Below are positions 7,214-61,656 of a DNA stretch of 64,000 nt, piece by piece. Origin of the DNA: a virus; IMG/VR virus record IMGVR_UViG_3300021963_009201, positions 96,001 through 160,000 of that record. One strand, given 5' to 3'. The notes under the pieces were generated by a model. That model was not told the origin of the DNA and made no database searches. It saw nothing but the letters and a program-made list of their open reading frames with translations. Position 1 is the first letter of the stretch. Each line of letters begins with the position of its first letter. The position numbers and the translations under genes are program-made.

Positions 7214-7283
7214 GAACGTCCTTTATGAGGGGTTGAACGCGGAAAGTACAAAACTGCGCAAATTTGATTTATACTATAGTATA

Positions 7284-7293
7284 ATTACTAATA
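7284..7293 (+). promoter_or_regulatory. candidate late promoter motif ATTACTAATA
   Basis: About 31 nt upstream of the endolysin start. Confidence 0.5.
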
Positions 7294-7324
7294 TGGTATA
7301 TAAATAAAAACTAGGAGAAAAATT

Positions 7325-16342: not shown

Positions 16343-17176
16343 TCATACCGTAGAGAAACTATTGATAATTTTTACCATCATCTCTCGGGAGTTCATGCCG
16401 TAGGCATTACCTGCCTCAACGCAAAAATGGTCGAGAGTGTTACGGAATGTCGGATCTACTTCTTCGTTAAATCCTTCTCCATTCATTTGCGCTTTAGGGC
16501 TTTCCCATTTTGTTTCCAATATCTTTAAAAGAGAGAGTTTTTCCCACTCCTTAAAGTAGTACCGAACAGCGTCGGGATGGTTTGATTTAGATGCGCCAGC
16601 TGGGATCCCCCGTTGCATACAGTGGATTACCGTATCTTGGAGGTCTAGGTTCCAGCCTGAATTCCAAACCATATTATAAGCCTGCTGGACGCCTTCTGCT
16701 AGACTCCCGCAGGGCTCATAAATTTCGTGTACAGGATTGCAAAGGTTTGAGTTAAAGTATAGGTTTAAAAGTGGCAGCATAAAAACGCGGTCATCCCAAC
16801 CATACAATGGCTCATTCCTGCAATAAACACGAATTAAAACTGGATTATAGTGCTCATCAAACATCACGTAGTAAGTTGTCCAGGGTATAGGGAGATTAAA
16901 CCCCTCTACAGCGGTCCTACTATCTATAAAGTCTTTACGGGCAAACGCTAACTCTACATATTGTACAGAGGGTGGTCTTTCAAAGACTATGATACGTTGA
17001 TTATCGGAAATCCATCTTACAGCAGGAGGAAGAAAACCAAGATCTTGCCTACCGTGGCTGGTGAGACTACGGAATATATCCCCCGCAGATTTTTCTGGAA
17101 GAGGGATTGTACCGGCACTGTGGTATACACCACTTACTGTATCGGTTGATGAGTTAATTTTAAGTTCAATTTTCAT
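16343..17176 (-). CDS. prokaryotic E2-like protein (family D / PRTRC protein B-like)
   Basis: LPPAVRWIS..FERPP..LPIPW..RVYCRNEPL..FMLPLLNLYFNSNLC; putative catalytic Cys present. Confidence 0.7.
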   Translation of the reverse strand: MKIELKINSSTDTVSGVYHSAGTIPLPEKSAGDIFRSLTSHGRQDLGFLPPAVRWISDNQRIIVFERPPSVQYVELAFARKDFIDSRTAVEGFNLPIPWTTYYVMFDEHYNPVLIRVYCRNEPLYGWDDRVFMLPLLNLYFNSNLCNPVHEIYEPCGSLAEGVQQAYNMVWNSGWNLDLQDTVIHCMQRGIPAGASKSNHPDAVRYYFKEWEKLSLLKILETKWESPKAQMNGEGFNEEVDPTFRNTLDHFCVEAGNAYGMNSREMMVKIINSFSTV

Positions 17177-18072
17177 TTTAATAAATCCCAGAAAAACTTA
17201 GAGAGCTCTACATGTCCGGCATCTTTAGTTCTGTCCAATAGTGCCGTATTTTTATCAAAGTAGTTTACAAGATCGCCAAATGTGCAGTCTCCAAATTGAT
17301 GAACGTCAAGTGCTCGATAAGAAAGCCCTAGAACTTCTTCCATGGATAGTTTAGCCCAAGAAGCAAAGAATTCATTTGAGTAAATGTGGCAACCCATTTC
17401 CTTTGGGAAGTATTCGGTAATCATGGTTGTAAGATCGTTATTAAAGGTATCAGTCCAAAACCCATTTATCGCATCAAGGACAAACGCAGAAAAATTATTA
17501 TATTTCTCTGGATCATTAATTGGATGGAAACTGCCCCAGCAGATCGAGGCGTCAGGGTAAATGTTGGTTACTGGCAATGCATAAAGCTGGTCCGAAAAAC
17601 TGTTTAGCGGACTAGGCCTGCAGAAAACCTTTACACTAGGTAAATGATCTTTTTCAAATCCACTGAAAAACCAGACAGTCCATGGAATATTTATATTAAA
17701 AGAGAAAGTTTCGGGGTAAGGTCTTTCGCATTCGCAACCATAGTCTGGATCACAGCTATCCCAATGTTCAAAATCTTCATCTTCTAATTCACCTTGAACA
17801 TCTTGATACTTAATAGTGCAGTTGAGTGGCGGACGCTCAACCGCTATGGTGGACATATCTCGGGAAATCCACCTAGTAACCGGCGGTAAGATGTCTGTAG
17901 AATTTTTGGTGTTTTTAAAAAAGTTCTTTGATACGTTAACCATATTGGAATTTGATTGTTCCATAATCCCGTATCTAAAGTCTACACCAAATTCTGATAT
18001 AGTTATTTCTTGTTCTATTTGTGAATTGGGTGTTTCAAGGTTTGATTCACCTGTATCAAGCGCTTGCGACAT
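17173..18072 (-). CDS. prokaryotic E2-like protein (family D / PRTRC protein B-like)
   Basis: LPPVTRWIS..VERPP..NIPW..LYALPVTNIYPDASICWG..FWTDTFNNDL. Confidence 0.8.
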   Translation of the reverse strand: MSQALDTGESNLETPNSQIEQEITISEFGVDFRYGIMEQSNSNMVNVSKNFFKNTKNSTDILPPVTRWISRDMSTIAVERPPLNCTIKYQDVQGELEDEDFEHWDSCDPDYGCECERPYPETFSFNINIPWTVWFFSGFEKDHLPSVKVFCRPSPLNSFSDQLYALPVTNIYPDASICWGSFHPINDPEKYNNFSAFVLDAINGFWTDTFNNDLTTMITEYFPKEMGCHIYSNEFFASWAKLSMEEVLGLSYRALDVHQFGDCTFGDLVNYFDKNTALLDRTKDAGHVELSKFFWDLLK

Positions 18073-19964: not shown

Positions 19965-20351
19965 TTATTCTCCGCTAGGTGCAGCTGAGTTTTCTCCAGC
20001 CATGTTTTCCATGGGTTGTTCAGGCTCAGTATTTCCGTCTTCCACGACATCGGTTGCGTACTCCAGTGTTTCTATCATAAGTTTACGCAATTCTTTTACT
20101 TTTCCTGTAAAAATCTTTTGCTTTTCTTCTGTCTCGGTTTCGAGCAGTGACATGAATGCTTCAATGAATACGGCTTGTTCTGCTAGTCCGACTGTTAGTG
20201 TTGCTAGTTGTTGTTCTAGTGTTTCTAGTTTAGCCGTAGAGTTCTGTAGTTCTTCATTGATATATCTTTGGGTGGACTGTAGTGCACCGTCTACTTTTGA
20301 GTAGAAAAAATCTAGGTCCGCTTGAGTTGCGTCTGGCGATTGTTCTTTCAT
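19965..20351 (-). CDS. coiled-coil hypothetical protein
   Basis: 4-nt overlap with the upstream gene. Confidence 0.55.
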   Translation of the reverse strand: MKEQSPDATQADLDFFYSKVDGALQSTQRYINEELQNSTAKLETLEQQLATLTVGLAEQAVFIEAFMSLLETETEEKQKIFTGKVKELRKLMIETLEYATDVVEDGNTEPEQPMENMAGENSAAPSGE

Positions 20352-20953
20352 AGTGTCTCAAACCATTCTAGGTTGGAATTGGCATATGCGTTTAAGCATA
20401 AGTCAACTCTGTACGAGATTTCTGCTAGTTCAACTCTTGTTACTTTAATTGAATCTGTTGATAGTGGGCTTGACATGTCTGGTAGGAAAGCTCCGGACGA
20501 TGATTTGTTTGCTTTGAAGTGTCCGCATTTGAAGACGAATGATGTTTGGTCGTATTCGTTCTCGCCTTTGCGCCAGTGATGGGATTTGAATATGCGTGAT
20601 ATTGGTTTCCCATCTTGGCCTGTACCGCCACCGTAGAATACTATACCTTCGCTTGTTGGTACTCCAAGTTTTTGGTTGGCTGGGTAGATTACTTCTCCGC
20701 GCCCGCTAGTCACTGTTTGCAGGTATGTTGCAAATAGTATTGAGTCAACAAATGTTTCTGTGTGAGATTTCAGGGATGCGTCTTGCCCTGTTGCGCCAAT
20801 ATCTATACGGAATTTTCCGATTGACAGTATTGGCTTGATTGATAAGAACCCACTCGCCGATGGAGATTTGAACCATTTTTTGTATAGGTCTGGTATTATT
20901 TTCTTATCGTTTGTTTCTACTACTATTTGTTCTTCGTCAAAGTTCAAATCCAT
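20348..20953 (-). CDS. hypothetical protein
   Basis: AAGGA RBS; directly downstream of the AAA gene. Confidence 0.65.
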   Translation of the reverse strand: MDLNFDEEQIVVETNDKKIIPDLYKKWFKSPSASGFLSIKPILSIGKFRIDIGATGQDASLKSHTETFVDSILFATYLQTVTSGRGEVIYPANQKLGVPTSEGIVFYGGGTGQDGKPISRIFKSHHWRKGENEYDQTSFVFKCGHFKANKSSSGAFLPDMSSPLSTDSIKVTRVELAEISYRVDLCLNAYANSNLEWFETL

Positions 20954-20961
20954 TTATTTCC

Positions 20962-22542
20962 TTAAAAAGATGTCATAATTGGTTGCCGTTTTCCACCAGT
21001 TTTCTTTCCACCCAAGATGATCTCTGCATCTTTTAGTTGGTCGGAAGATGCCCAGTCCCATTCGGCTATTGCGCGTTTGTACATGTCGAGGACTGTTTCG
21101 CGGTGTTTGGTCCACATGCGATTTTGTTGTGTCGGTATTAACGATTCAATATCGTTTTGTTCGACTTTACGTTTGTCTTTTACTGAAATCTTAAATTTCG
21201 CTTCACGAATAAGCGCTTTTATTTCAGCGCCTGTGAATGTATCTGACTGTTCCGCAAGTGTCTGTAGGTTGAATCGTTCTGAGTCTGCGCCAAGGTGGAT
21301 TCCGAAGATGCCAATACGCTCTTCTAATGATGGGAGTCCGACAAACATGATTTTGTCAAACCTGTCAGCGCGTAACATCTCTGGGGAAATGTGTCCAATT
21401 TGATTTGCAGCTGCCATCAGTAGTACATTGTCTGGTAGTTCTTGGATGCCTGTGAGAAATTCACCATGTACACGAGATGTTGTACCGCCATCACCTTGGT
21501 AGTCTCCAACGGAGAGGTCGCGGCCAAGTTCGTCCATCCAGATTACTAGTGGGGCCATGGAGCGAATTTGAGAGAACGCTGCACGCATTCGTTTTTCTGA
21601 CTCGCCGATGAATTTATCCATCATTTGACTAATGCCGAACTTGGCGAGGTCTAGACCAAGTGTTGATGCAGTTGCTTCACATATCGCAGATTTGCCTGTA
21701 CCTGGTATTCCGACAAATAGTACGCGCCGAAGAGGCATAATATCGAGCTCTGCGGCTTCTACGGGGTTGTTCCAGGTCCAGACAACATTGTCGATGAGCT
21801 CTTTGGCGAGGTCAAGACCGCCGATGTCGTTAAGTGCAATTTTGGGGCGACGTATTTCAAGGATGCCGCCCTGTTTTACTCGATCCATTTTCCACTTAGC
21901 GATGAATTCCGGGTCGACAGTTTTACGCTCGTTTATGCTGAGCATAGAGACTTGGATAAACTCTTGCTCGGTAAGACCAAGTCCCGCTTTAACAACCTTG
22001 TTGAGATCAAGATCTTGATTGAATAGTATTTTATCTTTAGAAAAGATTGAAGCAGAAAGGAATGTTAACTCAGATTCGGTCGGGTATCCAGGATGACACA
22101 CAACAAAATGTTTTGTTAACTCAGGTGGCACTTCATCATTGCAGGAAAGCGCAATAAATTGGGTTTCAATATTTTCCAGGTTATTAGATAGCACAGCAGT
22201 GCGGTATTTGCTGTAAGCCGTGAGGAAAAGACCAATAAGTTTTTCTGCTAATTGGTGAGCATTTTCGAAAATAAAACATGCCTTAGCGTCCATTACATGG
22301 TCGATAGCCATACCTAGGTCATGAATTGGCGCCTCTTGTAAGTCGCCTGCTTCTGCACTACCTATCTCGCCAAGAATTGTCTTCCATGTGTTGTCGCGCC
22401 AAACAACTAGACCATTAACAGCGTCGAGCCTGTACACGTCTTTTGTGCTGACGCTACATATTATTTCTGTTATACGCTCAGGTTCTAGGGTGTTTACCCA
22501 GATTAGAGGGGAACCAATGCGGATGTGTTGGATCATTTCCAT
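20962..22542 (-). CDS. AAA+ ATPase, Ycf46-like (degenerate N-terminal AAA domain plus active C-terminal AAA domain)
   Basis: Walker A GIPGTGKS, Walker B IWMDE, PEMLRADRFD arginine finger, FTGAEI. Confidence 0.9.
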   Translation of the reverse strand: MEMIQHIRIGSPLIWVNTLEPERITEIICSVSTKDVYRLDAVNGLVVWRDNTWKTILGEIGSAEAGDLQEAPIHDLGMAIDHVMDAKACFIFENAHQLAEKLIGLFLTAYSKYRTAVLSNNLENIETQFIALSCNDEVPPELTKHFVVCHPGYPTESELTFLSASIFSKDKILFNQDLDLNKVVKAGLGLTEQEFIQVSMLSINERKTVDPEFIAKWKMDRVKQGGILEIRRPKIALNDIGGLDLAKELIDNVVWTWNNPVEAAELDIMPLRRVLFVGIPGTGKSAICEATASTLGLDLAKFGISQMMDKFIGESEKRMRAAFSQIRSMAPLVIWMDELGRDLSVGDYQGDGGTTSRVHGEFLTGIQELPDNVLLMAAANQIGHISPEMLRADRFDKIMFVGLPSLEERIGIFGIHLGADSERFNLQTLAEQSDTFTGAEIKALIREAKFKISVKDKRKVEQNDIESLIPTQQNRMWTKHRETVLDMYKRAIAEWDWASSDQLKDAEIILGGKKTGGKRQPIMTSF

Positions 22543-22772: not shown

Positions 22773-23300
22773 TTATCCATACGAATAATCGCTTTCCCTG
22801 TGGTGACCTTTTTCTTCTCTACTTGAGGCAATTTGAATTGCTTGTACTTTATCGAGAAGTTTTCTTGCGGATTCAGAAGCTATTCTGGCTGCAATTTCTT
22901 GAGCTTCTGCGAGCTCTATAATTGCCTCTAACGTTGAAAGTTCTATGTATTCTTTTTCTGCAGCAGCCATTGCATTTGCTTCGCGTTCTTGGGCATTCTT
23001 TGCGGAAGTTCCTAGCGCAGTTTTATATTTACGCTTGTATCTACCTTCTGCCAATTTGTAGTGGGCGCGCGCAATACCAGCAAATCTTGCAATCCTACCA
23101 TAGTTGTTTGAAGTGCGTGCGACTAAAGACATTAAATCTTGAACAGTTAGATCTACATCTGAACTTGTAGGCATCTCTATAAAAGAAGATCCTGCACTGC
23201 CTGGATCTGAAACTATTAAGGAGATTATTTGCTCTAGCTCTGGGCCAAGAACATCTATGAGTATCTGTTCTGCGCGATGTATTGGTGAGTCAGGGTTCAT
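22773..23300 (-). CDS. helical coiled-coil hypothetical protein
   Basis: Ala/Glu/Lys-rich heptads; AGGAG RBS. Confidence 0.6.
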   Translation of the reverse strand: MNPDSPIHRAEQILIDVLGPELEQIISLIVSDPGSAGSSFIEMPTSSDVDLTVQDLMSLVARTSNNYGRIARFAGIARAHYKLAEGRYKRKYKTALGTSAKNAQEREANAMAAAEKEYIELSTLEAIIELAEAQEIAARIASESARKLLDKVQAIQIASSREEKGHHRESDYSYG

Positions 23301-23370: not shown

Positions 23371-23709
23371 TCAGACGAAGAGCTCGTCTACTTCGGCGTT
23401 GGTAAGCTTCTGGATGTCTTCGACCTCATGGTCAATGACACGGCTACCGGTGATGCGAGCTGGGCGGAAAGACTTAATCGCTGACTCGCGATTAGGTGCC
23501 TCTACCCAGAAAGTACCAGTGATTTCGTAAACGCTTGAACCGTTGTTGCGGGTCCAGTTAGCCTTCATGGCTGCAGCAGAAGGGACGGTGATCTTAAGAG
23601 CCTTAGCAACCTCTTTGGTGCTCTTGCCCTTTTCGAACATCGAGACAGCCTTCTCTCGCTTTGCGTCGGTTAATGCCATTTTAAATTTCTCCTTGTGCAT
23701 TTTATGCAA
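23371..23709 (-). CDS. HTH DNA-binding protein
   Basis: GKSTKEVAKALKITVPSA. Confidence 0.65.
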   Translation of the reverse strand: MHKMHKEKFKMALTDAKREKAVSMFEKGKSTKEVAKALKITVPSAAAMKANWTRNNGSSVYEITGTFWVEAPNRESAIKSFRPARITGSRVIDHEVEDIQKLTNAEVDELFV

Positions 23710-23711
23710 AA

Positions 23712-24755
23712 TTATTGTATATTCTGATTATCGTAAAAGTTAGAGTTTGCGTTATTCAAAAGGCGTGTAAGTTCAGACAACGAATATTTTATCCATTCTT
23801 TTGGATTATTATTCGGAGTCAAACTAAACCAGCATGATTCCATTGGTGTAGATGTCGAATTGCCGCGATAGTGAACTACGCCTTTTGGAATAACGGCCAT
23901 ATTATTTTGCAGGTGCGTCTTAACTAGACACGACCAACTCATCCAAGCGCTATGTAATAGATCCCTATTACTGTATAGCAAATAGTGTCTGAATTCGTCG
24001 TAGGTAAGACAACCTATATCATACAAGTCTAAAAGATTTTCTGCAACTAAATTCCAGTATAGTTGTTTGGAGCTCCAGTTATCTCTAAAAGACATTGCAG
24101 TATTTGTAAACCTAATCCAACTACCCGAATGCTTTAGTCTGTCTTTTGTTGATAGTATAATTTCTATAGTTTCTTCGCCAAAGATAGACATAAGATCGGC
24201 GTGGATATAGCTTACGGAGCCACTTGCGGAAGATCGAATAGCATCTGTAAGGTTGCCATTCCATGTTTTTGCTTGTGGCCATTTTCTCTCAATTTGTTCA
24301 AAAGTAGAAACATTTTTTTCTACTAAAAACAAACGAGAGTAATCGATAGAAAAGTTTTCTATCAATTCTTGAGGTTCAACGGATAACTCGGGTAAGAGTA
24401 TACAATATCCGGAACTAAGATCTACATCTATTGATTTTTTTTCTTGAAGTGAGATCTGTCTTTTTATGGAGACATTATAGGAAGACTCTTCAATGAAGTC
24501 AATAGGTACGGAAATGCCTAAAAGGTCTAGACCTTTTCGTGTGGGCACCCATATATCTGCCCTTCTTCCCCTTTTACTTCTGGGGTGCAGGTCTTGCTTT
24601 CTTTTTATATATCTATTAGAGAGCAGTTCTATTCTTGAAGGCAGAAATTCGTGTTGAGTAACTAGTTTTGCGCTTCTTAATTCTGTAGAAGTAACTGCTT
24701 TATTTGACGCAATAAACCTAAGGAGTTTTTTTGCGCTAACGGAAATTTTATCCAC
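23712..24755 (-). CDS. winged-helix plus possible SAM-dependent methyltransferase-like protein
   Basis: N-terminal wHTH (W.PT.KG..LL); LFLVEKN..WNGNL..IHADLM Rossmann-like segment. Confidence 0.45.
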   Translation of the reverse strand: MDKISVSAKKLLRFIASNKAVTSTELRSAKLVTQHEFLPSRIELLSNRYIKRKQDLHPRSKRGRRADIWVPTRKGLDLLGISVPIDFIEESSYNVSIKRQISLQEKKSIDVDLSSGYCILLPELSVEPQELIENFSIDYSRLFLVEKNVSTFEQIERKWPQAKTWNGNLTDAIRSSASGSVSYIHADLMSIFGEETIEIILSTKDRLKHSGSWIRFTNTAMSFRDNWSSKQLYWNLVAENLLDLYDIGCLTYDEFRHYLLYSNRDLLHSAWMSWSCLVKTHLQNNMAVIPKGVVHYRGNSTSTPMESCWFSLTPNNNPKEWIKYSLSELTRLLNNANSNFYDNQNIQ

Positions 24756-24830: not shown

Positions 24831-25076
24831 TTAGCCCTTTTCGCCAGCGCGACGATGGAACTCAATGTTGTCACCAGACTGGATGACATAGTTGTCGTCC
24901 AGTTTTTCCTTACCCTTGTAAGCGTTTGCGTCGCCTGGGATGCCCCACATCGACCCAAACTGCTGACGAAGTTCAGAAACGCTCTTACCTACGTGATTAC
25001 CGGGATTGTTGTAAACACCGTAGCGGATCTGTGCTGAGCCACCGCTCTGCGATCCTGGGGATGATGCTTGCTGCAT
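24831..25076 (-). CDS. ubiquitin-like (beta-grasp) small protein Ubl-1
   Basis: GKSVSELR..W.IP..A..L..NYVIQSGDNIEFHRRAGEKG, terminal Gly; abuts the E1 gene. Confidence 0.85.
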   Translation of the reverse strand: MQQASSPGSQSGGSAQIRYGVYNNPGNHVGKSVSELRQQFGSMWGIPGDANAYKGKEKLDDNYVIQSGDNIEFHRRAGEKG

Positions 25077-25859
25077 TTATGCTCCTTGGTATACTAATTC
25101 GTTAACGTTAACGCTTCGGTCAAAACTCTGGGCTAACCCGGCTTCTAAGTCAAAGAAATATTCACAATTAGAAGCCGGATCATTACCTTCAACAATGACC
25201 ATATTAAACCGTGCCAGCAATGCTGCTGTTACGGCCATATTCGTGGCAAGAAGCTGCGTCCCTCCTTCGAGTTCAGCCCTCTCTTGACACGAAAGTTCAC
25301 CAGGGTTACGGTCAGGAGGATTTACGTACTCCTCATGCCAAACCGCAGGGTGATCTACCAGCTCAATACCATCACGCTTAGCGTAGTGGTACGTAGAGCC
25401 AAAGTACTTTTCATCATTTCCGCCCAAAAATACGTCGACATTATTAATTTTAGAGGCCGCATCTATTAGCTGTTTCCTTGCTTTGAAGTTATCAACTACA
25501 GCAAAAATGATATCTTTTTCGACAATTAAGTCAGAAGCAGCTATTTTTCCTGCCGGCTTAGAGCCATCTGCTTCCTTGTCATCATCTTTTGCCCCCTCAA
25601 CTTTATCGACTACCCAATATGGCATAGGGATTATAAACGTTTTGTCAAACTGGGGGACAAGTTCTGAAGCGAGAACTTCAGCTTTATTGCCTACGCCATT
25701 AAAAAACTGACGTTGCTTATTCTTTGCTTCGAAGTTGTCACCATCAACTATGACTAGCGCTGACCCTGGCATTCTCCATTCTAGAGTCATAGCGATAGAC
25801 CTAGAAAGCAGGGAGCCAATACCGCCTGCGCCAACGATAATTACTCTGCGCTCTTCCAT
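25077..25859 (-). CDS. E1-like ThiF-family adenylyltransferase
   Basis: VGAGGIGS, IVDGDNFEAKNKQRQ, NKAEVLA, VVDNFKAR, putative catalytic Cys in ELSCQER. Confidence 0.93.
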   Translation of the reverse strand: MEERRVIIVGAGGIGSLLSRSIAMTLEWRMPGSALVIVDGDNFEAKNKQRQFFNGVGNKAEVLASELVPQFDKTFIIPMPYWVVDKVEGAKDDDKEADGSKPAGKIAASDLIVEKDIIFAVVDNFKARKQLIDAASKINNVDVFLGGNDEKYFGSTYHYAKRDGIELVDHPAVWHEEYVNPPDRNPGELSCQERAELEGGTQLLATNMAVTAALLARFNMVIVEGNDPASNCEYFFDLEAGLAQSFDRSVNVNELVYQGA

Positions 25860-26431
25860 TAAAACTCCTCGTAATTTATGTGAATATAGTCATTTGTTGC
25901 TGCTGACGACAAACTTTGAATGACTAATTCATCTTGGTAATAATCTTCACATACTGTAATACCTGCACTGATTTTAGGGTTCTTTATGTAATGAATTACA
26001 AAATTACGCAAGGGTTTGCAGTATTCAGTGTATTGGTACGAGCATGTAAAGCAGTCATTGGAAAATGAGTCTTGATACACGTTTTCCCAAATATCTTGAG
26101 GGACTTCTTCTGTATCATCCCAGCTCACTGGGTATGAACATGTGCAATCCATCATAGACTCTTCGCAGCAAATCATTAAAGGATCACTTGATGCGTAAAA
26201 GTCTTTAATCTGTTCTATAACAACTGTTGGTGCAGTAGCAACAAAAAGATCCCAGTCTTCTTCAGTAAAACCAACGCCACACGATTCGCATGAGTGTTCG
26301 TTAAATTCGACTAGATCTTTGCAGTTGGGATTCAAACATTCAACTAGTAGAGCACTCTCGTTATGGGAGCTTGATGCTATATCTATATTGCAGTAGGGAC
26401 AATTGGGAAGATCTTCTTCCATTTCACTCAA
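25859..26431 (-). CDS. Cys-rich zinc-finger protein in the Ubl cluster
   Basis: CPYC..ECLNPNC..HSCESC..CC..CTC..CFTC..C. Confidence 0.65.
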   Translation of the reverse strand: MSEMEEDLPNCPYCNIDIASSSHNESALLVECLNPNCKDLVEFNEHSCESCGVGFTEEDWDLFVATAPTVVIEQIKDFYASSDPLMICCEESMMDCTCSYPVSWDDTEEVPQDIWENVYQDSFSNDCFTCSYQYTEYCKPLRNFVIHYIKNPKISAGITVCEDYYQDELVIQSLSSAATNDYIHINYEEF

Positions 26432-26481
26432 ATAGGAGTAACACTCAAGGCAGTAGCCGTAGTGCTCTTTATTTGAGTGAT

Positions 26482-27753
26482 TCAGCCTTTTCCCAGCGCA
26501 TCACCGACTTTATCTGCTGCGCAGTAAAGTTCGAGTTTATCTTGAGAGTTGTTTTTGGTCCATAAGTATATTGGTTTTTGAACGCTTCGTTCTATGTCGA
26601 TGTCGTTGGAAAACAGCCCCATTGCTTTGCGGTGTGCTACTACATTGGGTACAGTTTCGTTATCGAACATAATATACTGATGACAGGACAGGCATCGACG
26701 CTTATCTTTGTCTACTTTGACAAACTTCACGGAACAAAACGGACAATGTGTATCGTTTTCGCTGATGCAGGCGATAATAATATTATCTTTGATAGGGGGA
26801 AAATCTTCAGGAAGCGTAACTTCTTTAGCTTGAGGTACAGTGCTGTAGCCTGTAGTTGAAGTTCCACCCGCACCGTACCCGTAGGAATAGTCGGTATAAC
26901 CGTATGAGCCAACGCCAGTTTTTCCGTTAGCTGTAGGTGTGTATACTTTCTTGGAAACTTTACCCATCCATACATCAATATCTGGCGAAGGGTCAGATTT
27001 TGGGAATGAATCAAATACCTGCCCTGGGTCAAGAGAAAATACTCCACCAGGAGTTTGTAACTCAATATGGTATTCTGTAGCATTATTGTTAATATTCTTC
27101 CGCCAACCATAGGTTATATGAATACCCGGAAAATCTGCCTGATCTTTATGGTCAGTGCCGGAAGCAAATGCTGGCATGTTTGGGTGGCTGTGAGCGGAGC
27201 CGACTAGGTAGACATGTTCCGGCTTCTCTTTAGCTATAGACTCGTGGTCATAAGCACAGTCAGCCGCCGTGTTTGTTTGGTCGGGAACTAAAACTCCCCA
27301 TCCGTCGCCTTCGTTTTCGAGACCAAAAAAGTTTGGATCATAAGTAAGGAGTACTATCGACTCGGTGCCGTGCTTGTCTTCGACAGCCCTAAAGAAATCG
27401 TCCATTTTTTGAACCATTTCATAAGGAATTCTAGGAAGCGTATACTCTGCGCTAGTAGAAAGAGTTTCCAAGTTAAGTTCTTGTTCTGTTGCTACAGTAA
27501 CAGAACGGGAAATAATAGTGGAGACAACTTTGAAAATTGTCGGCCTTGTACTAGTCTTGGTCGTCTTATTAGTGTCTGTATAGCTATATTCTTCTACCGT
27601 CATTAAGTAGTAGAAGTTATAGCCATGGGCTTCAATATGTTGGCAAATATCATCTACATTTCCAACGAAGCATGGCATTCCATTTGGTAGGTCAAAATAA
27701 GTTAATTCTTCCAGCGGAATTAACTCAAACTTATCTTCTGATACTTCTGTCAT
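26482..27753 (-). CDS. JAB/JAMM metallo-isopeptidase with C-terminal Zn ribbon
   Basis: E...HSH-x7-S-x2-D (GTE...HSHPNMPAFASGTD); CPFC..CLSC. Confidence 0.92.
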   Translation of the reverse strand: MTEVSEDKFELIPLEELTYFDLPNGMPCFVGNVDDICQHIEAHGYNFYYLMTVEEYSYTDTNKTTKTSTRPTIFKVVSTIISRSVTVATEQELNLETLSTSAEYTLPRIPYEMVQKMDDFFRAVEDKHGTESIVLLTYDPNFFGLENEGDGWGVLVPDQTNTAADCAYDHESIAKEKPEHVYLVGSAHSHPNMPAFASGTDHKDQADFPGIHITYGWRKNINNNATEYHIELQTPGGVFSLDPGQVFDSFPKSDPSPDIDVWMGKVSKKVYTPTANGKTGVGSYGYTDYSYGYGAGGTSTTGYSTVPQAKEVTLPEDFPPIKDNIIIACISENDTHCPFCSVKFVKVDKDKRRCLSCHQYIMFDNETVPNVVAHRKAMGLFSNDIDIERSVQKPIYLWTKNNSQDKLELYCAADKVGDALGKG

Positions 27754-27776
27754 TACAGGTCCTTGTTGAGGTTAGT

Positions 27777-29279
27777 TTAAGAAAGTACTAGTTTTGCGTA
27801 GCAGCTTTTGCAAACTGGCTGCGAATAGTTATCGTCTAAATATTGAATATTTTCTTTATAAACAAGAGATTTACATTGGCAAATAGAGTATTCTGTTACG
27901 CAGTCTGAGCAAAGTTTAGCTAAAGACATTTCCTGGGTAAAAGGATCAAGGTGTTCAATCAGGGCAAGATCCTCGACTGCTGTAGGGTATGAACAGTTAG
28001 AGCAATGCTCAACTTTGGTACAAGCTACGCACATATCGTTACTGATTAACGATTCTTCATCTTCATGAAAACTATAACATTTCTGACACTGAAACAAAGT
28101 CACACATGAAGAGCAGTGAAAGTTTTCATTGTAAAAAGCCATGTCGGCATAATGCTTATGAGTGTCACATGAAACGCAAATAGCTAATTTTTCTTCTGCG
28201 CACCAAGTGCATGCATAACCGTTTTCAAAGCTTATAACATTTGAAGACCCATAGATTTCTCCGCAAAGTTTGCACGACGTAATGTGATCAGAAAACGGTA
28301 TAAGCGGCTTATGTTCTTCTGCTGTTTTTATCGTTTTGCTTTCAGCACTCCTAAAAGCGCTTTGAATCTTAGTCAATACATCTTTATTTGACGGAGGCTC
28401 AAGATCTTCTCGAATAAACTTTTGATAATTTTTTGGAGTATTTTGATCTCCGTAATATGCGCGGTACTTGCCATCTACCGCCATTCTCAATGTGTAGTAA
28501 GAACCATCTTCACCATCGTAGTGCTTCGTCTGATCATCAATATCTTTTACAATGACGGGAATCCAAAGGCTACCATCTAGGGTCCAATCAGCGCCTTCTT
28601 GGGATGATTTACCTTCCCAAGCCTCAGGGTCCCAGAGGTAATTATATTCGATATTGTTTTCATATTTCTCGGCGTAAAAACGTGGGCCATCTGTTTCTTT
28701 CATGTTGGCGTCATTATATGCTTCAGTGCCGCCAGCGCGCTCAACGAGATTTGCTATTTTTTGACCAAGGTTCAAGTGTGATATAGATGGTTTATTGTGA
28801 TAAAGACATATCCAGCCGACACCATTACCGTTGCCATAGCCTTTGCAATTTAAGTTTGGCAAGTTCACATGAAATAAAACTTGATCAAGACTAGTTATAG
28901 GTGTCGGAGAGTAAAAGTGTCTAGCACCAAAAAATTCATTATCAACAAAATCGCCAATTACAATACGATACGGCATTGCAAGGTCGTAGTGGACGGCTTC
29001 GGTATCCCCTTCGGAACCGCCCCATATGACCCTATATACGCCTGGAGTATGCTGAAATACTACCTGACAATGCCCAAGGGCTTGACGGATCATTAACGTG
29101 CCCGATCCGTCAAGCGGCAATATCCCGGTATCAAAAAATGCTATATCACTTATTGACTTAAAAACAGCATTCAACTCTTTTGTTTCAGTATTTTCTATAT
29201 TACCGACAACAATAGAATTTTTAACTCCCTGATCACTTAATTCAATAAAGGAACCTATTTTTGGGTCAACATATGACAT
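27777..29279 (-). CDS. prokaryotic E2-like domain fused to multiple CxxC zinc fingers
   Basis: LAMPYRIVI..LFHVNLPNLNC..GWICLYH; about eight CxxC pairs in the last 190 aa. Confidence 0.7.
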   Translation of the reverse strand: MSYVDPKIGSFIELSDQGVKNSIVVGNIENTETKELNAVFKSISDIAFFDTGILPLDGSGTLMIRQALGHCQVVFQHTPGVYRVIWGGSEGDTEAVHYDLAMPYRIVIGDFVDNEFFGARHFYSPTPITSLDQVLFHVNLPNLNCKGYGNGNGVGWICLYHNKPSISHLNLGQKIANLVERAGGTEAYNDANMKETDGPRFYAEKYENNIEYNYLWDPEAWEGKSSQEGADWTLDGSLWIPVIVKDIDDQTKHYDGEDGSYYTLRMAVDGKYRAYYGDQNTPKNYQKFIREDLEPPSNKDVLTKIQSAFRSAESKTIKTAEEHKPLIPFSDHITSCKLCGEIYGSSNVISFENGYACTWCAEEKLAICVSCDTHKHYADMAFYNENFHCSSCVTLFQCQKCYSFHEDEESLISNDMCVACTKVEHCSNCSYPTAVEDLALIEHLDPFTQEMSLAKLCSDCVTEYSICQCKSLVYKENIQYLDDNYSQPVCKSCYAKLVLS

Positions 29280-29282
29280 AAT

Positions 29283-29681
29283 TTAACTTTCGTTTAAATT
29301 CAAAAACTTATTTAAGGCTTCATCAATTTCTTCATCAAAGTCGCCAAAAGCCCAAGCTAACCAGCTCGGGTCAGATTCGGCTAGATCAAGAATTTCCTTG
29401 CGTTTCCTTAAAACGTCTAATGGCTCAAGAAGTTCGGCAACCCGGCTTAAACCTTTAGATAAACCAATAAGCTCTTCCTTGTTGTGGCTAATGTGCATAA
29501 TTGGAACAATTATTGGATTGCCATCTAAGGTAAACTTATTAACTATGTTATCAATTCGGGTTTCCAGCGCCTCGATTTGAAGATCTATTTCTTTTTTTGC
29601 GAAAGAAGCGCTGGAAGCGTTAAAGCGGAAAGTGTCAATAGGTTTTGACGCTTTATTATTTTCAAGTGGTTGATGTGTCAA
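29283..29681 (-). CDS. hypothetical protein
   Basis: Immediately upstream of the E2-Zn finger gene. Confidence 0.55.
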   Translation of the reverse strand: MTHQPLENNKASKPIDTFRFNASSASFAKKEIDLQIEALETRIDNIVNKFTLDGNPIIVPIMHISHNKEELIGLSKGLSRVAELLEPLDVLRKRKEILDLAESDPSWLAWAFGDFDEEIDEALNKFLNLNES

Positions 29682-30021: not shown

Positions 30022-30519
30022 TTAAAGCCTTGATTCACTTAAGCGATCATTTAAATCTTTAGATCGCTTTCTTTTAATGTCTAAAATAGTTTCATGATCT
30101 ATGTCATTATCTTTTAGGTACTGATGATACATTGAGTCAACTTGGTCTCTAATAATAGATTCAGATTTTTCGTTCCATTGAACCCAAATATTTCCAAACA
30201 AAGCGTCAATGTTTTTTACAGCAGACTGTATTTGTCGAGAACTGTGTCCTCCCCAAACCCCATATTCTTCTTTCTTAACTAAGGCTAAGAAAAGACAATC
30301 TTTTATGACTGGGCACTTCAAGCAGACTTTAGAAGCTGTATCTAATTCTTGATTATGGCTTCTAGGGTACATTTGCCCTGGTTCGCTTTCCCAGCAGTTC
30401 CCAAGTGGTGCCCAACTTCGTTTTTTAGTTTGAAGATTTCTATAAAAAAATTCTAAAGATTTGTATGGGGGTAATTCTATTTCTTCTAAAATATACTCTT
30501 CATCATAAATCATGTCCAT
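30022..30519 (-). CDS. whiB: WhiB-family Fe-S transcription factor
   Basis: W...GNC..CLKCPV..DC..GVWGG; start moved from 30594 to MDMIY to reduce overlap. Confidence 0.9.
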   Translation of the reverse strand: MDMIYDEEYILEEIELPPYKSLEFFYRNLQTKKRSWAPLGNCWESEPGQMYPRSHNQELDTASKVCLKCPVIKDCLFLALVKKEEYGVWGGHSSRQIQSAVKNIDALFGNIWVQWNEKSESIIRDQVDSMYHQYLKDNDIDHETILDIKRKRSKDLNDRLSESRL

Positions 30520-31171
30520 TTTTATTTTCTTTTTCTGCAGAGAGTTCTTTAATAATTGAAAATAAGACAGCTGGCCTATAAAGCTTCTGTCCAATTTTAT
30601 CTGTTACATTTCCGTAATTAATGATATTTTCGTCAGGCGCAATATTTAAGCTAGAACACGATGCAATATATTGATTTTTGGCTTGCTCAAATTTCCAGTC
30701 CAAGAATGAATGGTATGTTCCCATATATAAGAAAAGTTTATCGGCTTCAAGTTCTTTTGGTGCACTTTCTGCCGCTTTCCAAATAATACTGGAATACTCA
30801 CGCACAACATGGATCATAATGATGTTATGCCGAGCTTCATGAAGGTCTATATAATCGTCTAGCATTCCCTCACTAATTCGGTTCACTACATCGCATAAAG
30901 CTGACATAATTGGCGCATCAGATCTAGAATCAAGAAGCTCTGAATAGAAAGATATTAAATCAGCACTAGCAAAAACCACTAACGGAACTGATGTATTGTG
31001 CAGATTAACGCTATCAATATCAATATATTTACTTAAGGCTTCTACAAGTTCTGAAGGGAGACTTTCTCCGTTTGGGCCTAAAATTTTTGAAGCACTCTTG
31101 TTATTTTTCGGCGCGTCATTAAGAATATCGTCATCTTCATCACCTATGAAGTACGGATTACTGGAATTCAA
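30503..31171 (-). CDS. hypothetical protein
   Basis: AGGAG RBS, 222 aa. Confidence 0.65.
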   Translation of the reverse strand: MNSSNPYFIGDEDDDILNDAPKNNKSASKILGPNGESLPSELVEALSKYIDIDSVNLHNTSVPLVVFASADLISFYSELLDSRSDAPIMSALCDVVNRISEGMLDDYIDLHEARHNIIMIHVVREYSSIIWKAAESAPKELEADKLFLYMGTYHSFLDWKFEQAKNQYIASCSSLNIAPDENIINYGNVTDKIGQKLYRPAVLFSIIKELSAEKENKNGHDL

Positions 31172-33720: not shown

Positions 33721-33798
33721 GGTAAACCTCAGGTATAAAGAAAATGCTCCCCCCCTTTTCCCTGTTAATATCTGAAAAGAGAGAGAGCTTTTAATGAG

Positions 33799-34188
33799 TG
33801 GAGCTGGGGGGAATCGAACCCCCGTCTTTTGGGCGAAACTTTTTTGCGATACAACTATTCCCGTTTTAGCGACGGGTCGCTAGGGCCGATCGACTCTTGC
33901 GAGTTTCTCGTTTCCACCATCCACGCTTTCATGGCAGTCAAACGGTCTTTCCCGTTAGTCTATCTGTCTTTCCAGATTGTCTTTTTAGTTTCTGTTGAAA
34001 GGCACTAAAATAGCCCCGGGACACTAGTTAGACTAGTGCGCCCTCCTCTTCGAGAAGGGTGGCCATTTCGGCGTCCCAGTCGCAGACATATTCATCGGCG
34101 TTTATTGTTTTGCCCCTTTTAACGTCTCTGAGCAAGACGAGTTGCACTAGAAAGCTTCCTAGACCCAAAATCGAAACCAGTCAGCCCC
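33799..34188 (-). ncRNA. ssrA: tmRNA
   Basis: 5' GGGGCTGA; 3' GGGGGTTCGATTCCCCCCAGCTCCA; G3:U70 alanine identity pair; tag frame 34099-34028 ADEYVCDWDAEMATLLEEEGALV*. Confidence 0.93.
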
Positions 34189-34334: not shown

Positions 34335-34604
34335 TTATATTTCGGACTTCCTACCGATGTCATGTAAGCCGCCTGGCGCAAAAAACTCTATCTCATCACC
34401 ATCACTAGCAATATAGTCCCAATCGATTTGGATACAGCTTGATGGTAAGTTTGTTACCGGATTTCTTTTAAGGACTTTCATCGGTGAAAAATTCAATGAA
34501 ATATTATCGAAGTATTCTTTATACTTTACAACAAGCTCTCGAATACTAACTCCGTCCCCGCTTTGGAGTTCGATATTCTTATTATTCCATAACATTTTTA
34601 CCAT
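34335..34604 (-). CDS. second ubiquitin-like protein Ubl-2 with di-Gly followed by a 10-aa extension
   Basis: GVSIRELV..DWDYIASDGDEIEFFAPGG|LHDIGRKSEI aligns with Ubl-1 and the ThiS/MoaD C-terminus. Confidence 0.7.
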   Translation of the reverse strand: MVKMLWNNKNIELQSGDGVSIRELVVKYKEYFDNISLNFSPMKVLKRNPVTNLPSSCIQIDWDYIASDGDEIEFFAPGGLHDIGRKSEI

Positions 34605-45046: not shown

Positions 45047-47632
45047 CTACACCCCGCCCATTTTTGCTAATGAACCGGCAGCTTTCTCTACGTAAATTAT
45101 GCCGTGAGGTAGCGGGAATTCTCTTTCGAGTTCTTGAATTGTTACATCAGGATGTTCCTGTTTAAATTTTTCTCGTTGAGCATAAACAAGTTCACGCTTT
45201 TGTTCATATTCAAGATTTGCCTTTTTATGTTCTTCAGAAAGAAATCCACCAATTTTGTGCACTGTTGGACCTGAACTGGCTATAACTACCGGAGTTTCTT
45301 GAATATGAGATTTCTTACCAAGGTCATCAAGTGTGATAACTGCATTTTGCGTATTTAATCTCCATTTAGGGCAAAGCGTCGCATATAGCATTTGCCTTTG
45401 CCTCATGGAATCATTATCCATAGCAAGAGCGTTACCAATCCCACCAGTAGCGCGTGCATTATAGCTTACTCTGCTATTGTGGTTTTTGTACAAAGCTTGA
45501 CCACATTCACAGGTTGGAGAAAACCAATTCTCAATCTCAGATTGATCATATTGACGATTACAGTTCACACATCGCCATGCATCAGTTATGTCAACTTGGT
45601 CAGGTTCACCGTGATCTTTAAAAATTGCAAACTCATTTTCAAATGCCGGCATAACTGTTTGTTCCCTACCTTTCCGGCTACCATAGTAGCCGCGTGAAAG
45701 GTCGTAACCAAACAGCTGTTGACGAACGCTAATCATTCTTGGAGTGTCGCCAGAATAACCAATTTCAACTTCTTCATCTAATCTGTCAAGAAAGTCACGA
45801 ACATTAGTGATCGGGTTTCCTTCATTGTCGTACATTCCTCCAATAGCTTCAAGTTTCGTTGTGCTCATTTCTTCTGGCCACACTACGTCGCTTGACACTA
45901 TCCCACCAATTTCTTCGCGATATCTTGGGTGAGAAGTAATAGTCGCTAGCACCTCTTCGTGAAGACGCTGTACTGTCTGGGCATGCTGGCGCTTACCAAC
46001 TCTTAATTCTTCTTCGACTATCGCAGTATTATGGGCGCCAAGGTCAAAGTCAATGTCTGTCCTTTCAAGCCCAAAAGAATCCATAAACACTTTACGAAGA
46101 TCAAGCCCATTTGGATGGCTACAATGATGCTTTGATGGCTCAACAGATGAAGGCTTTAGCCAATTAGGTCGAACCTTTACCGGGTTGGCAAAATGCAACA
46201 TTGCCACTATTTTGTAATACTGGCTTTGTAAATCTTTTACAGCCTTAGAACCATAACGAGCTTTCCCTATACGCAACAGTTCAGGAAGATACAATCTAAA
46301 TACACTTGCGTTAGCAACCTCATCTGAGTATGTAACAGGAAGGTTACCATTCCCATCTACAGCGACAAAACGTCCATTACGTTCTTCTATATGAAGCATA
46401 CCATGAGGAGGGAAAACATAATTAGCTTTTGTTTGCCTTCCTGTTGTAAATTCTACAATACCTTTTACGAAATTGTATCGTGGAGCTTTAGCATGGTAGT
46501 AGCATGGTATGTTTTTAGACTGGTTACAACGTGGACATTTTTCTTCAACTAACGAATCCCACTGTTCATTTAAGATCTCAATTTTATCTGGCAATTGCGG
46601 CCAAATACTTTTTCTAACCTTTAGGTTATCGGGAAGATTAAACTGCTTGTGGTAAGGGTACATAATTTCCGCTACACCCTTAACAGTCCCACTGCATTCG
46701 GGGTCAGAATAGTTATATCCGATTTCAGCATCATCGTTAATAAAGATTTGCTTATTATATGCGTCTAAAATTGCGGTAACGTTATTGTGCTCAAATCTTA
46801 CCTTATACTTCAACGTTCCCTGGTGGTAGTCTTTGCGCAAGATTTGAACAGGAAAGCTTAACACCCTTCCATGACCTTGCGTTTGTTTTCTCCAAAGAGA
46901 CAGTCCAATAGATTGACCAATTGGCATTTCATTACGAAACGCTTCTTCTATAGCTTTCTCTTTTTCCCACGGAGTTAAAGAAGCATTTTCATTGACTTCC
47001 AAGTACTCAAACTGCCAGCTATCACCAGAGTAATAGGCGTAAAAACAGTTTGCGCAAGAAGGAGATTCAACTCGTTTTCCGCGAGGAACAAAATCGCAAT
47101 AAGAGATTTGCCCGTTAACGCGAACTCCTTCTACCGGAAGAGTGCATGAGCCACCAATAGCAACTTTCCAGCTATTAAGGCGGCTACCATTATCGGTAAA
47201 TGGTTCAAAGACAGTTCTACCATTTACTTTAATTGGTCGAAAGTACACCTTAGCTTCTGGGTCTGATGCGTACGAAACATCGATTTCAATTGGAAGAAAA
47301 CGATCACAACTTAAGCATTCCCTGCGGATATCGTGCCCACAAGTTTCAACAAATGCACGAGTTTTTTGCGCAGATTCCTGATCAACTGGAACCAGTCGGT
47401 TATTATGGTCAGTAGTGTTTAAAACCTTTACATCGCCCCAAACTTTAGTGGGGAAACAATTTATTTCTGATTCTTTAAAGTCTTTTTCAGACTTAATTTG
47501 AATTAATTCTTCTTTCGTAAGTGCCCAAGTCTTATCACTTGTCCGCGTACAAGTCCTACAAACCAAAGCTTGAGGTCTTTCTGCGTAAGATTCGCATAGA
47601 GAAATCTCTTCAATATGCACTGGGTGTCTCAC
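45047..47632 (-). CDS. large Cys-rich hypothetical protein (861 aa)
   Basis: Long open frame with several CxxC clusters; no recognised catalytic motif. Confidence 0.75.
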   Translation of the reverse strand: MRHPVHIEEISLCESYAERPQALVCRTCTRTSDKTWALTKEELIQIKSEKDFKESEINCFPTKVWGDVKVLNTTDHNNRLVPVDQESAQKTRAFVETCGHDIRRECLSCDRFLPIEIDVSYASDPEAKVYFRPIKVNGRTVFEPFTDNGSRLNSWKVAIGGSCTLPVEGVRVNGQISYCDFVPRGKRVESPSCANCFYAYYSGDSWQFEYLEVNENASLTPWEKEKAIEEAFRNEMPIGQSIGLSLWRKQTQGHGRVLSFPVQILRKDYHQGTLKYKVRFEHNNVTAILDAYNKQIFINDDAEIGYNYSDPECSGTVKGVAEIMYPYHKQFNLPDNLKVRKSIWPQLPDKIEILNEQWDSLVEEKCPRCNQSKNIPCYYHAKAPRYNFVKGIVEFTTGRQTKANYVFPPHGMLHIEERNGRFVAVDGNGNLPVTYSDEVANASVFRLYLPELLRIGKARYGSKAVKDLQSQYYKIVAMLHFANPVKVRPNWLKPSSVEPSKHHCSHPNGLDLRKVFMDSFGLERTDIDFDLGAHNTAIVEEELRVGKRQHAQTVQRLHEEVLATITSHPRYREEIGGIVSSDVVWPEEMSTTKLEAIGGMYDNEGNPITNVRDFLDRLDEEVEIGYSGDTPRMISVRQQLFGYDLSRGYYGSRKGREQTVMPAFENEFAIFKDHGEPDQVDITDAWRCVNCNRQYDQSEIENWFSPTCECGQALYKNHNSRVSYNARATGGIGNALAMDNDSMRQRQMLYATLCPKWRLNTQNAVITLDDLGKKSHIQETPVVIASSGPTVHKIGGFLSEEHKKANLEYEQKRELVYAQREKFKQEHPDVTIQELEREFPLPHGIIYVEKAAGSLAKMGGV

Positions 47633-58390: not shown

Positions 58391-58428
58391 AATAAGAAAG
58401 GGGCAGATACCCGAAGGTACCCACCCCC
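58391..58428 (-). terminator. UUCG hairpin terminator after the second SSB
   Basis: GGGGTGGGTACC-TTCG-GGTATCTGCCCC then TTTCTTATT. Confidence 0.75.
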
Positions 58429-58434
58429 AACTCA

Positions 58435-59448: not shown

Positions 59449-59479
59449 GTGGAGGGCTGAGACAGTCCCAACCCCCCAC
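59449..59479 (-). terminator. 14-bp hairpin followed by a T-rich tract
   Basis: GTGGGGGGTTGGGA-CTG-TCTCAGCCCTCCAC then ATTTCTCTTTTT. Confidence 0.55.
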
Positions 59480-59483
59480 TTTA

Positions 59484-59936: not shown

Positions 59937-60090
59937 AGAGGGACTCGACTTTCGAATCCCCCAACTTTATAAAACTGTTCAAACCTACGACTCTTTCCAT
60001 CGAAGGCTTTAGAAGTGAAGGCTTTGTCTTTCACCTCGCAGAGGCAGCGCCCGAGCTGAAAAGGTGCGAAAGCACCGGAGCAGGGCGCCT

Positions 60091-61070: not shown

Positions 61071-61071
61071 G

Positions 61072-61596: not shown

Positions 61597-61656
61597 TCCT
61601 CCTAGAATGATAGTTTGGTTAGGGTGGACAGTTTAGTGACATGTCCAGGTCAGGTG

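Follow-up and report, generated by a model that had tools for sequence, protein, structure and literature searches.

In this work, we describe a group of five genes in the genome of a large bacteriophage that probably encodes a complete ubiquitin-like protein-conjugation cascade, a reading to which we assign a probability of roughly 0.7 on the basis of gene content, sequence motifs and predicted structures. The genes lie in a stretch of 64,000 nucleotides (hereafter the window, whose coordinates are used throughout) corresponding to positions 96001–160000 of the linear IMG/VR virus record IMGVR_UViG_3300021963_009201, which is 190,033 bp long and estimated to be about 90% complete. The phage identity of the record is backed by a DNA polymerase gene, an endolysin gene, 10 tRNA genes and a transfer-messenger RNA (tmRNA) in the window. 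From gene content, motifs, predicted folds, homology and synteny we infer the thioester chemistry, the conjugation, its targets and a link to a neighboring AAA+ ATPase. The five genes are as follows:

27777–29279, minus strand: E2-like carrier enzyme, 500 amino acids (aa), proposed from the model fold, a profile-profile match and the invariant C158
26482–27753, minus strand: JAB/JAMM metallopeptidase, with the JAMM motif and 22.7 bits to Prok-JAB
25859–26431, minus strand: Cys-rich protein, 190 aa, with an 8-Cys module in its C half
25077–25859, minus strand: minimal ThiF/MoeB-type activating enzyme (E1), 260 aa, above the Pfam ThiF cut-off
24831–25076, minus strand: ubiquitin-like modifier (Ubl), 81 aa, with a β-grasp model and the terminal Gly81

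A preliminary description of this DNA, made from the letters alone, had reported five tightly packed minus-strand genes, and we recovered the same open reading frames (ORFs), separated by gaps of −1, 0, 23 and 50 nt. A consensus scan for promoter and terminator signals of the cassette performed no better than chance. The cassette sits in a long minus-strand run of non-structural genes with about 40% G+C, with RNase H and WhiB genes upstream and genes for a single-stranded DNA-binding protein (SSB) and a member of the uracil-DNA glycosylase (UDG) family downstream. We compared it with six related loci (L002 to L007), that is, three contigs reached through distant homologues (101–236 kb) and three loci found among 185,579 species genomes.

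The modifier and its activating enzyme

The Ubl gene encodes 81 aa and ends in RRAGEKG immediately before the stop codon, as first described. A word-based search retrieved only 12 close clusters of relatives, none of them named. In an alignment of 16 rows, built with these 12 clusters and three syntenic orthologues, the C-terminal F-H-R-x-A-G-E-K-G is invariant up to the stop codon; the conserved tail pattern is EFHRxxGxKG, ending at Gly81. The Gly is also kept in two more divergent copies, those of L007 (PAGDKG-stop) and L006 (MGEKG-SK-stop), and in three orthologues one to four residues extend past it. Similar overhangs are found in BilA homologues, and in Type II Bil they are removed by the JAB peptidase BilC.

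The AlphaFold2 model of the Ubl (predicted local distance difference test, pLDDT, 82) has a disordered leader of 14 residues and the order β-β-α-β-β-β. The top 50 Foldseek matches in the PDB were nearly all from the ubiquitin family (ubiquitin, SUMO, NEDD8, ISG15), with a probability of 1.00. VIA-align gave a Z of 8.6 to Fubi, with a root mean square deviation of 2.1 Å across 66 residues, and its rows were mostly β-grasp proteins, MoaD and TtuB being included at lower Z. Because the model and both structural searches agree, the objection anticipated in the preliminary description, that the small protein might not be a β-grasp protein, fails at the level of prediction; its best matches are ubiquitin, SUMO and NEDD8. 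A profile search found one Ubl of the cassette's family in the genome. Elsewhere in the window, an 89-aa ORF (34335–34604, minus strand) aligns weakly with the Ubl family, at 23% identity and with the D-x-IEF motif, and extends beyond the position of the terminal Gly; it was not detected by the Ubl family profile at E ≤ 0.01.

The neighboring gene had been read as a ThiF/E1 with ATP motifs and a Cys within ELSCQER. This reading holds, since the protein scores 41.1 bits against Pfam ThiF (cut-off 28.1) and carries GAGGIG and ELSC(191)QER. Four orthologues, 47–56% identical, share an invariant G10xGGIG, D39, R50, D123 and Cys191, the latter within PGE[LM]SCQER, and the Cys is retained in L007 too. 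Apart from the Pfam match, hits to curated models (ThiF, MoeB, UbaA, PRTRC_ThiF) were far under their cut-offs and confined to the N-terminal Rossmann part, and the best PDB matches by sequence were MccB and TcdA. With 260 aa, the protein is a single adenylation domain, devoid of CxxC zinc pairs, a rhodanese domain and a separate Cys domain. It is the sole ThiF protein of the 190-kb genome; when 50,697 phage records were searched by tblastn, its only matches were in two Bacillus jumbo phages, at 26% identity.

The preliminary description had also allowed for an E1 that serves only sulfur transfer or tRNA modification. A profile search of the 190-kb record gave no match to rhodanese or to PP-loop (ATP_bind_3) sulfurtransferases, so that such an E1 would have no recognizable sulfurtransferase partner in this genome.

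The JAB peptidase and an eight-cysteine module

The JAB protein does contain the exact JAMM motif ascribed to it, HSH-x7-S-x2-D occupying residues 188–201 and being complemented by Glu131; none of E131, H188, H190, S198 and D201 varies among four orthologues. Its score against Pfam Prok-JAB is slightly under the cut-off of 25, and the best PDB matches of the family profile were a Caldiarchaeum Rpn11-like protein, BRCC36 and AMSH. A conserved domain of unassigned function precedes the core, and a C-terminal CxxC...CxxC zinc ribbon (C337, C340, C354, C357) follows it.

The product of the multi-Cys gene contains 14 Cys. Its N half has CxxC pairs, and its C half is a module of eight Cys (C88, C89, C96, C98, C127, C130, C138, C161) with the pattern CC-x6-C-x-C … C-x2-C-x7-C … C; library searches with the protein returned no family match. 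In this genome and in L002, where it had not been called as a gene, the module has an ORF of its own, whereas L003 and L004 carry it as a C-terminal extension of JAB. The gene is missing among those listed for L003 and L004 and might therefore seem not to be conserved, a view overturned by alignment, which shows that the module is conserved either split from JAB or fused to it. What had been listed simply as a zinc-finger gene is thus a module split off from the JAB protein to which it is joined in relatives, a relationship missed in the preliminary description. The eight Cys would fit as ligands of two zinc ions or of an iron-sulfur cluster. An E3-like role for the module is only a guess.

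A family of E2-like proteins

The 500-aa protein had been described as an E2 family D-like domain fused to about eight CxxC pairs. The E2 identity is supported by profile-profile and fold evidence, although by no curated model, and the actual count is nine CxxC plus one CxC, all in residues 336–493. Residues 1–330 define a large, sharply bounded family. At 90% identity it comprises more than 351 clusters, most of them about 50% identical, on contigs of up to 236 kb and without informative names; when 1.84 billion representatives were searched exhaustively with HMMER, 209 clusters at 50% identity were obtained, 182 of them under E 1e-30. The BFVD viral-protein library has a single clear member, an uncharacterised protein from an uncultured phage of the Caudovirales. 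The Cys tail ranges from none (7 of 43 members, 352–365 aa) to more than 400 residues, a variability that marks it as an accessory and fast-changing part of the protein.

Across 46 diverse members of the family (31–47% identity), Cys158, N142, N144, Y148, G155, W156 and Y160 are invariant, and Cys145 is kept in at least 90%. From this conservation Cys158 would be the best candidate for the catalytic residue, with Cys145 as the alternative. The AlphaFold2 model (pLDDT 87.7; predicted template modeling score 0.84) shows, in order, a β-β-β-α unit, a helix at 36–44, an antiparallel sheet (strands within 60–124), a loop at 125–170 containing C158, and helices from 171 onward. The loop bears the motifs H137-x-N139, LPN142, C145 and C158-L-Y-H161. 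All features by which the ubiquitin-conjugating (UBC) fold of E2 enzymes is recognized, namely the helix, the antiparallel sheet, the Cys loop and the crossover and C-terminal helices, are present in the predicted domain.

When the model was compared by VIA-align with 48,161 representative PDB chains, about 20 of the 25 top rows were E2 enzymes (UbcH10, E2S, Ubc9, UbcH5, UbcH7, Ubc12, Ubc13), with the CdnG-E2 of CBASS (cyclic oligonucleotide-based antiphage signaling system) lower down. These matches had Z values of 3.5–4.2 and covered 105–133 residues, at about residues 42–240 of the model. Such low Z values prove nothing alone; it is the uniformity of the matches that is notable. Language-model neighbors of the protein were viral clusters, some of them with Prok-E2_D (score 0.94). 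An E2-like protein lacking the UBC fold or a positioned Cys had been named beforehand as grounds for rejecting a conjugation pathway; instead, the domain is predicted to have a UBC-like topology and has the invariant Cys158.

Direct sequence searches were less informative. Scans of 44 and 46 members of the family gave zinc-finger noise only, and a sequence-profile search of the PDB with the family gave Cys-rich noise only. Neither the 500-aa protein nor any of 89 family members scanned matched Prok-E2_D (PF14460). The 500-aa protein had no tblastn match among the 50,697 phage records, and a single-protein pattern scan of IMG/VR with it found nothing.

A further link to E2 enzymes is provided by two tandem genes (299 aa and 277 aa) located 7 kb downstream. 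Their products match each other at E 1e-19 and are the only two matches in the genome to the profile of their family. Among 16 members of this family, 14 matched Pfam Prok-E2_D at E <0.1 (best 3.2e-6), and 10 weakly matched PRTRC_B (best E 0.0022); the score of a window paralogue against Prok-E2_D was 16.4 bits (cut-off 25). Pairwise BLASTP of the 500-aa protein with both paralogues was not significant, the link being visible by profiles only. In hhalign, the two families matched at 96.8% (E 3e-10, 182 columns), a value that rose with the diversity added to the alignments, from 55% through 78.5%. Four pairs of motifs are collinear between the E2-like family and the paralogues: DTGxLP/DTDILP, QPYRIV/IPWTVW, FYSPxPIT…LYHxNLPN/FCRPxPLxS…LYxLPxxN and WIC/ICW. 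In the alignment from the 55% comparison, Cys158 pairs with the conserved Cys178 of the paralogues. Taken together, the conserved residues, the predicted fold and the paralogue and profile-profile links make the E2 assignment of the 500-aa protein sound. Three E2-like genes therefore face one E1 and one Ubl of the family in this genome.

Conserved neighborhood and distribution

The preliminary description had suggested a search for conserved synteny on related phage contigs. After a tblastn search of all window proteins against the six related loci, we found the order E2-JAB-E1-Ubl in all six, a recurrence far beyond chance. Other genes of the window take part in the conserved arrangement:

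29283–29681, minus strand: 132-aa protein of unassigned function, a conserved partner separated by 3 nt from the E2-like gene, upstream of it
20962–22542, minus strand: AAA+ ATPase of the classic clade (Cdc48/VCP-like; Pfam AAA 3.8e-25)
19965–20953, minus strand: two conserved genes (201 aa and 128 aa) after the AAA+ gene, recognized by synteny only, without family match
16343–18072, minus strand: the tandem pair of Prok-E2_D-like paralogues, 299 aa and 277 aa long, matching each other at E 1e-19

The 132-aa gene lies directly upstream of the E2-like gene in five of the six loci (tblastn E 1e-19 to 1e-26), and its product has no family match in Pfam, NCBIfam, PHROG or PADLOC. Past the Ubl gene, the AAA+ gene and the 201-aa gene are also present in five of the six, with either no variable gene or one to three of them intervening; the remaining contig stops about 2.8 kb downstream of the Ubl gene. 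The 128-aa gene was found in three related loci and the Prok-E2_D-like paralogues in four. The conserved module is thus larger than the preliminary description reported, with the 132-aa gene at one end and the AAA+ and 201-aa genes at the other. No family match was obtained for the 201-, 128-, 195- and 373-aa neighbors of the AAA+ protein.

Between the Ubl and AAA+ genes, the window has a 347-aa gene (23712–24755, minus strand) and a 112-aa gene (23371–23709, minus strand), neither with a counterpart in the six related loci, and a 175-aa gene (22773–23300) common to L002 and L007. This interval is a variable insertion site within the conserved module.

A WhiB gene lies upstream of the cassette in most related loci, the relatives having one or two such genes. 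The WhiB-domain protein of the window (30022–30594, minus strand) is unusually long, with 190 aa, the domain occupying residues 61–120 and being followed by a helical tail.

Only three matches to the E2-like family came from cellular assemblies (L005, L006 and L007). They are contigs of metagenome-assembled genomes assigned to three unrelated families, Cyclobacteriaceae, Ectothiorhodospiraceae and Iamiaceae, they carry the whole cassette, and one of them is 210 kb long; they are probably phage contigs mis-binned into these genomes. As the sole cellular matches look like phage contigs, the cassette is in essence confined to one lineage of large phages. The E2-like family likewise appears almost only on large WhiB-carrying phage-like contigs, always with the same neighbors.

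Proposed mechanism and alternative explanations

A thioester cascade is the best supported explanation for the cassette, given the strong purifying selection on a complete catalytic set, the presence of one Ubl and one E1 facing three E2-like proteins, and the masking of the Gly in some orthologues. In such a cascade, Gly81 of the Ubl would be adenylated by the minimal ThiF-type E1, which is probably homodimeric, and the Ubl would then be carried as a thioester on Cys191. The next acceptor would be Cys158 of the 500-aa protein, and the two Prok-E2_D-like paralogues would probably serve as acceptors too; in the last step, the Ubl would be joined to target proteins in the infected cell. The choice of targets may depend on the variable CxxC tail of the E2-like protein, on the use of three different E2s and perhaps on the 8-Cys module. 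The JAB peptidase would trim the Ubl variants with a short extension past the Gly and strip the tag from conjugates, on which the Cdc48-like AAA+ ATPase may act. Given its non-structural context (WhiB, RNase H, SSB, UDG), the cassette most likely works on proteins of the host or the phage while the phage takes over the cell or replicates, and not in virion assembly.

Several observations weigh against a conjugation cascade. The E2 identity of the 500-aa protein was not detected by Pfam, NCBIfam, PHROG or PADLOC models, Foldseek found nothing significant in the PDB for its model, and the fold match to E2 enzymes is weak, with Z at most 4.2. The loop of the model has two conserved Cys (145 and 158), either of which could be the catalytic residue. 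The Ubl ends in a single Gly after Lys, not in Gly-Gly. With only 260 aa, the E1 has neither a separate catalytic-Cys domain nor a recognizable E2-recruiting domain, an architecture so minimal that it offers no obvious route for the handover from E1 to E2. The family of the AAA+ ATPase occurs in 106 cultured phage records, in a collection where the E2-like protein has no tblastn match, and its adjacency to the cassette may be merely genomic. Finally, the host, for which the preliminary description implied an actinobacterium, is placed by the WhiB genes only, in a window of about 40% G+C.

An unlikely alternative, although the one that fares best, is that the cassette is a counter-defence device, in which JAB strips conjugates made by the host, or the phage Ubl or E2 serves as a competitor or decoy against host Ubl or CBASS-type immunity. 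Bacterial systems with Ubl, E1, E2 and JAB components, such as Bil and type II CBASS, are anti-phage defences, and the cassette sits among non-structural, early-type genes. Moreover, the Cys tail of the E2-like protein varies in length and is sometimes absent, as expected under an arms race. A decoy, however, could do without a full cascade whose catalytic residues are invariant in E1, E2 and JAB, and without three E2s, and a PADLOC search found no similarity to Bil or to Cap2/Cap3 of CBASS other than generic E1 and JAB motifs.

We consider it very improbable that the Ubl and E1 work as a sulfur carrier and its adenylating enzyme, in the manner of ThiF/ThiS, MoeB/MoaD or TtuC/TtuB, producing a thiocarboxylate for cofactor synthesis or tRNA thiolation, with JAB maturing the carrier. 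The E1 is minimal and its best matches among curated models and PDB sequences are ThiF, MoeB, MccB and TcdA, in the N-terminal Rossmann part only; MoaD, ThiS-like and TtuB chains occur among the fold matches of the Ubl, and the window contains 10 tRNA genes and a tmRNA, which would suit a role in tRNA modification. Against this, the Ubl tail is KG instead of GG and its best folds are ubiquitin, SUMO and NEDD8; the set is conserved alongside three E2-like genes with an invariant Cys; and the 190-kb genome has no rhodanese or PP-loop (TtuA/TilS-type) gene, nor has the E1 a rhodanese domain.

Least plausible of all is that the E2-like proteins are non-catalytic scaffolds (UEV/RWD-like), with E1 and Ubl acting without E2 as archaeal SAMP and UbaA do and the zinc fingers binding targets: E2-less Ubl conjugation exists, UbaA, the E1 of SAMP, is among the weak NCBIfam matches of the cassette E1, some bacterial operons (class 6e of Iyer 2006) encode E2/RWD-like domains that are inactive, and the fold match to E2 is weak, but the invariance of Cys158, N142, N144, G155, W156 and Y160 in 46 members is more indicative of an active site than of a scaffold, and the paralogues retain the aligned Cys.

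A conjugation cascade is therefore the reading that we retain. As far as sequence and predicted structure reach, the virus has its own conjugation-type gene set, as the preliminary description proposed, and nothing of what that description had listed as contrary evidence was found.

Comparison with known systems

The theme of prokaryotic Ubl-E1-E2-JAB systems was first outlined by Iyer et al. (2006). The preliminary description likened the component set to the PRTRC cassette and to Bil; there are parallels with both, but the cassette appears to be a member of neither.

The nearest named cassette is PRTRC (ParB-related, ThiF-related cassette; NCBIfam TIGR03735-03737), of plasmids and integrative and conjugative elements, which also has a separate small ThiF-type E1, a JAB protein and a Prok-E2_D-type E2. 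PRTRC_B and Prok-E2_D are the only named families touched by the E2 paralogues, as is PRTRC_A, besides generic JAB models, by the JAB protein, and the E1 touches PRTRC_ThiF among many weak ThiF/MoeB-type matches. Yet all scores lie far under the curated cut-offs, with 22.6 against 144.75 bits for PRTRC_ThiF and 14.3 against 101.8 for PRTRC_A. ParB_N (PF02195) had no match in the 190-kb record, itself about 90% complete, so its absence is not absolute. The cassette differs from PRTRC in that it belongs to a lytic-type large phage, and not to a plasmid or integrative element, and in its zinc-finger E2 tail, 8-Cys module, extra E2 paralogues and AAA+ neighbor. No function is known for the PRTRC cassette itself.

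Bil, the BilABCD system with its types I and II, corresponds to class 6d of Iyer et al. (2006). It shares with the cassette the four separate genes for Ubl, E2, JAB and E1, a reactive conserved C-terminal Gly on the Ubl, at times with a short overhang, and a His soon after the catalytic E2 Cys (C158/H161 here, C138/H151 in BilB). BilD is a two-domain E1, with an inactive and an active adenylation domain and a mobile Cys domain (PMC11601596), whereas the E1 of the cassette is a single 260-aa adenylation domain with Cys191 in a loop. In addition, Bil is encoded by the host and the cassette by a virus. PADLOC v2.0, in which the presence of Bil models is unconfirmed, gave only weak matches to Cap2-type E1-E2 (in the Rossmann part of the E1) and to generic JAB.

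The chemistry of E1, E2 and JAB would be shared by analogy with Cap2/Cap3 of type II CBASS. Cap2, however, is an E2-E1 fusion that conjugates a cGAS/DncV-like nucleotidyltransferase (CD-NTase), not a β-grasp tag, while the cassette encodes its E1 and E2 in separate genes and has a Ubl of its own. Bub (6E/DUF6527) has Ubl, E1, E2 and JAB components and a metal-binding or extra partner protein as well. It is characterized by oxyester intermediates, an E1 without catalytic Cys, fusions (Ubl-E2, JAB-E1, E2-E1) and a DUF6527 protease; in the cassette the Cys of E1 and E2 are invariant, the genes are separate and Pfam gave no DUF6527 match. The tail-assembly pair of phages lambda and T1, Ubl (TAPI) and JAB-NlpC (TAPK), resembles the cassette in combining a phage β-grasp protein with a C-terminal Gly and a JAB domain, but it has no E1 or E2 and lies in a tail-assembly cluster, not, like the full cascade predicted here, among replication and takeover genes. 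Nor does the cassette agree with the ThiS/MoaD type of sulfur carrier, which consists of a Gly-Gly carrier and a sulfurtransferase without E2, since it has a Lys-Gly tail and three E2-like genes.

Set apart from Bil, PRTRC, Cap2/Cap3 and Bub by scores below cut-off or by a different E1 architecture, fusions, substrate or chemistry, the cassette is, to judge from its sequence, not a member of any of them and represents a new phage-borne variant of prokaryotic Ubl-E1-E2-JAB systems. In full-text literature searches we found no description of a complete Ubl cascade encoded by a bacteriophage; nearest to it are the lambda/T1 tail-assembly pair and a preprint on Asgard viruses with viral E1 homologues only.

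Bacterial Ubl conjugation has so far been characterized as host immunity against phages, as in Bil and type II CBASS. A complete and strongly conserved cascade in a widespread lineage of large phages would show the virus side using the same chemistry. For biochemistry, the cassette would also provide a new and compact E1-E2-Ubl-JAB set, in which the E2 belongs to a family not described before and zinc-finger parts are already included, and its targets could reveal how such phages take over hosts not yet cultured.

The AAA+ ATPase

The best PDB matches of the AAA+ protein are an archaeal VCP-like ATPase and Cdc48/p97 (E 2.6e-52), and it matches PHROG 8638 along its whole length. The homologues in cultured phages include gp96 of mycobacteriophage Corndog and proteins of Rhizobium and Rhodobacter phages; as no relative of the E2-like protein was found with them, the AAA+ family is not tied to Ubl systems, and its adjacency to the cassette is suggestive only. 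Two further associations were considered and rejected, that is, a proteasome subunit beside the AAA+ gene, there being no Proteasome-family match in the genome, and an independent module of the AAA+ and 200-aa genes shared with Aeromonas phage HJ05, whose neighboring proteins are unrelated.

It is conceivable, though doubtful, that the Ubl cascade and the Cdc48-like ATPase form one viral pathway that tags and unfolds chosen host or phage proteins. The unfoldase would then extract or destroy the tagged proteins, possibly feeding host proteases, while the three E2s and the variable zinc-finger tails would serve as the system's own receptors for substrates. If true, the virus would have a counterpart of the ubiquitin-Cdc48/proteasome axis, working in WhiB-bearing, probably Actinomycetota, hosts that otherwise use Pup. 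The cassette could help to test whether the pairing of ubiquitin and AAA+ arose outside eukaryotes and archaea.

Other features of the window

G+C content is 0.48–0.53 at 6001–8000 and 58001–64000, and about 0.38–0.42 elsewhere; the first of these richer stretches overlaps the start of the endolysin gene (7325–8398). Three large ORFs on the minus strand lack a PHROG match, at 45047–47632 (861 aa, without a Pfam match as well), 61657–63921 (754 aa) and 52724–53788 (354 aa). The 10 tRNA genes called by ARAGORN are spread across 13.7–55.8 kb. The same program called the tmRNA at 33798–34188 on the minus strand, adjoining a tRNA-Thr gene and encoding the tag peptide ADEYVCDWDAEMATLLEEEGALV.

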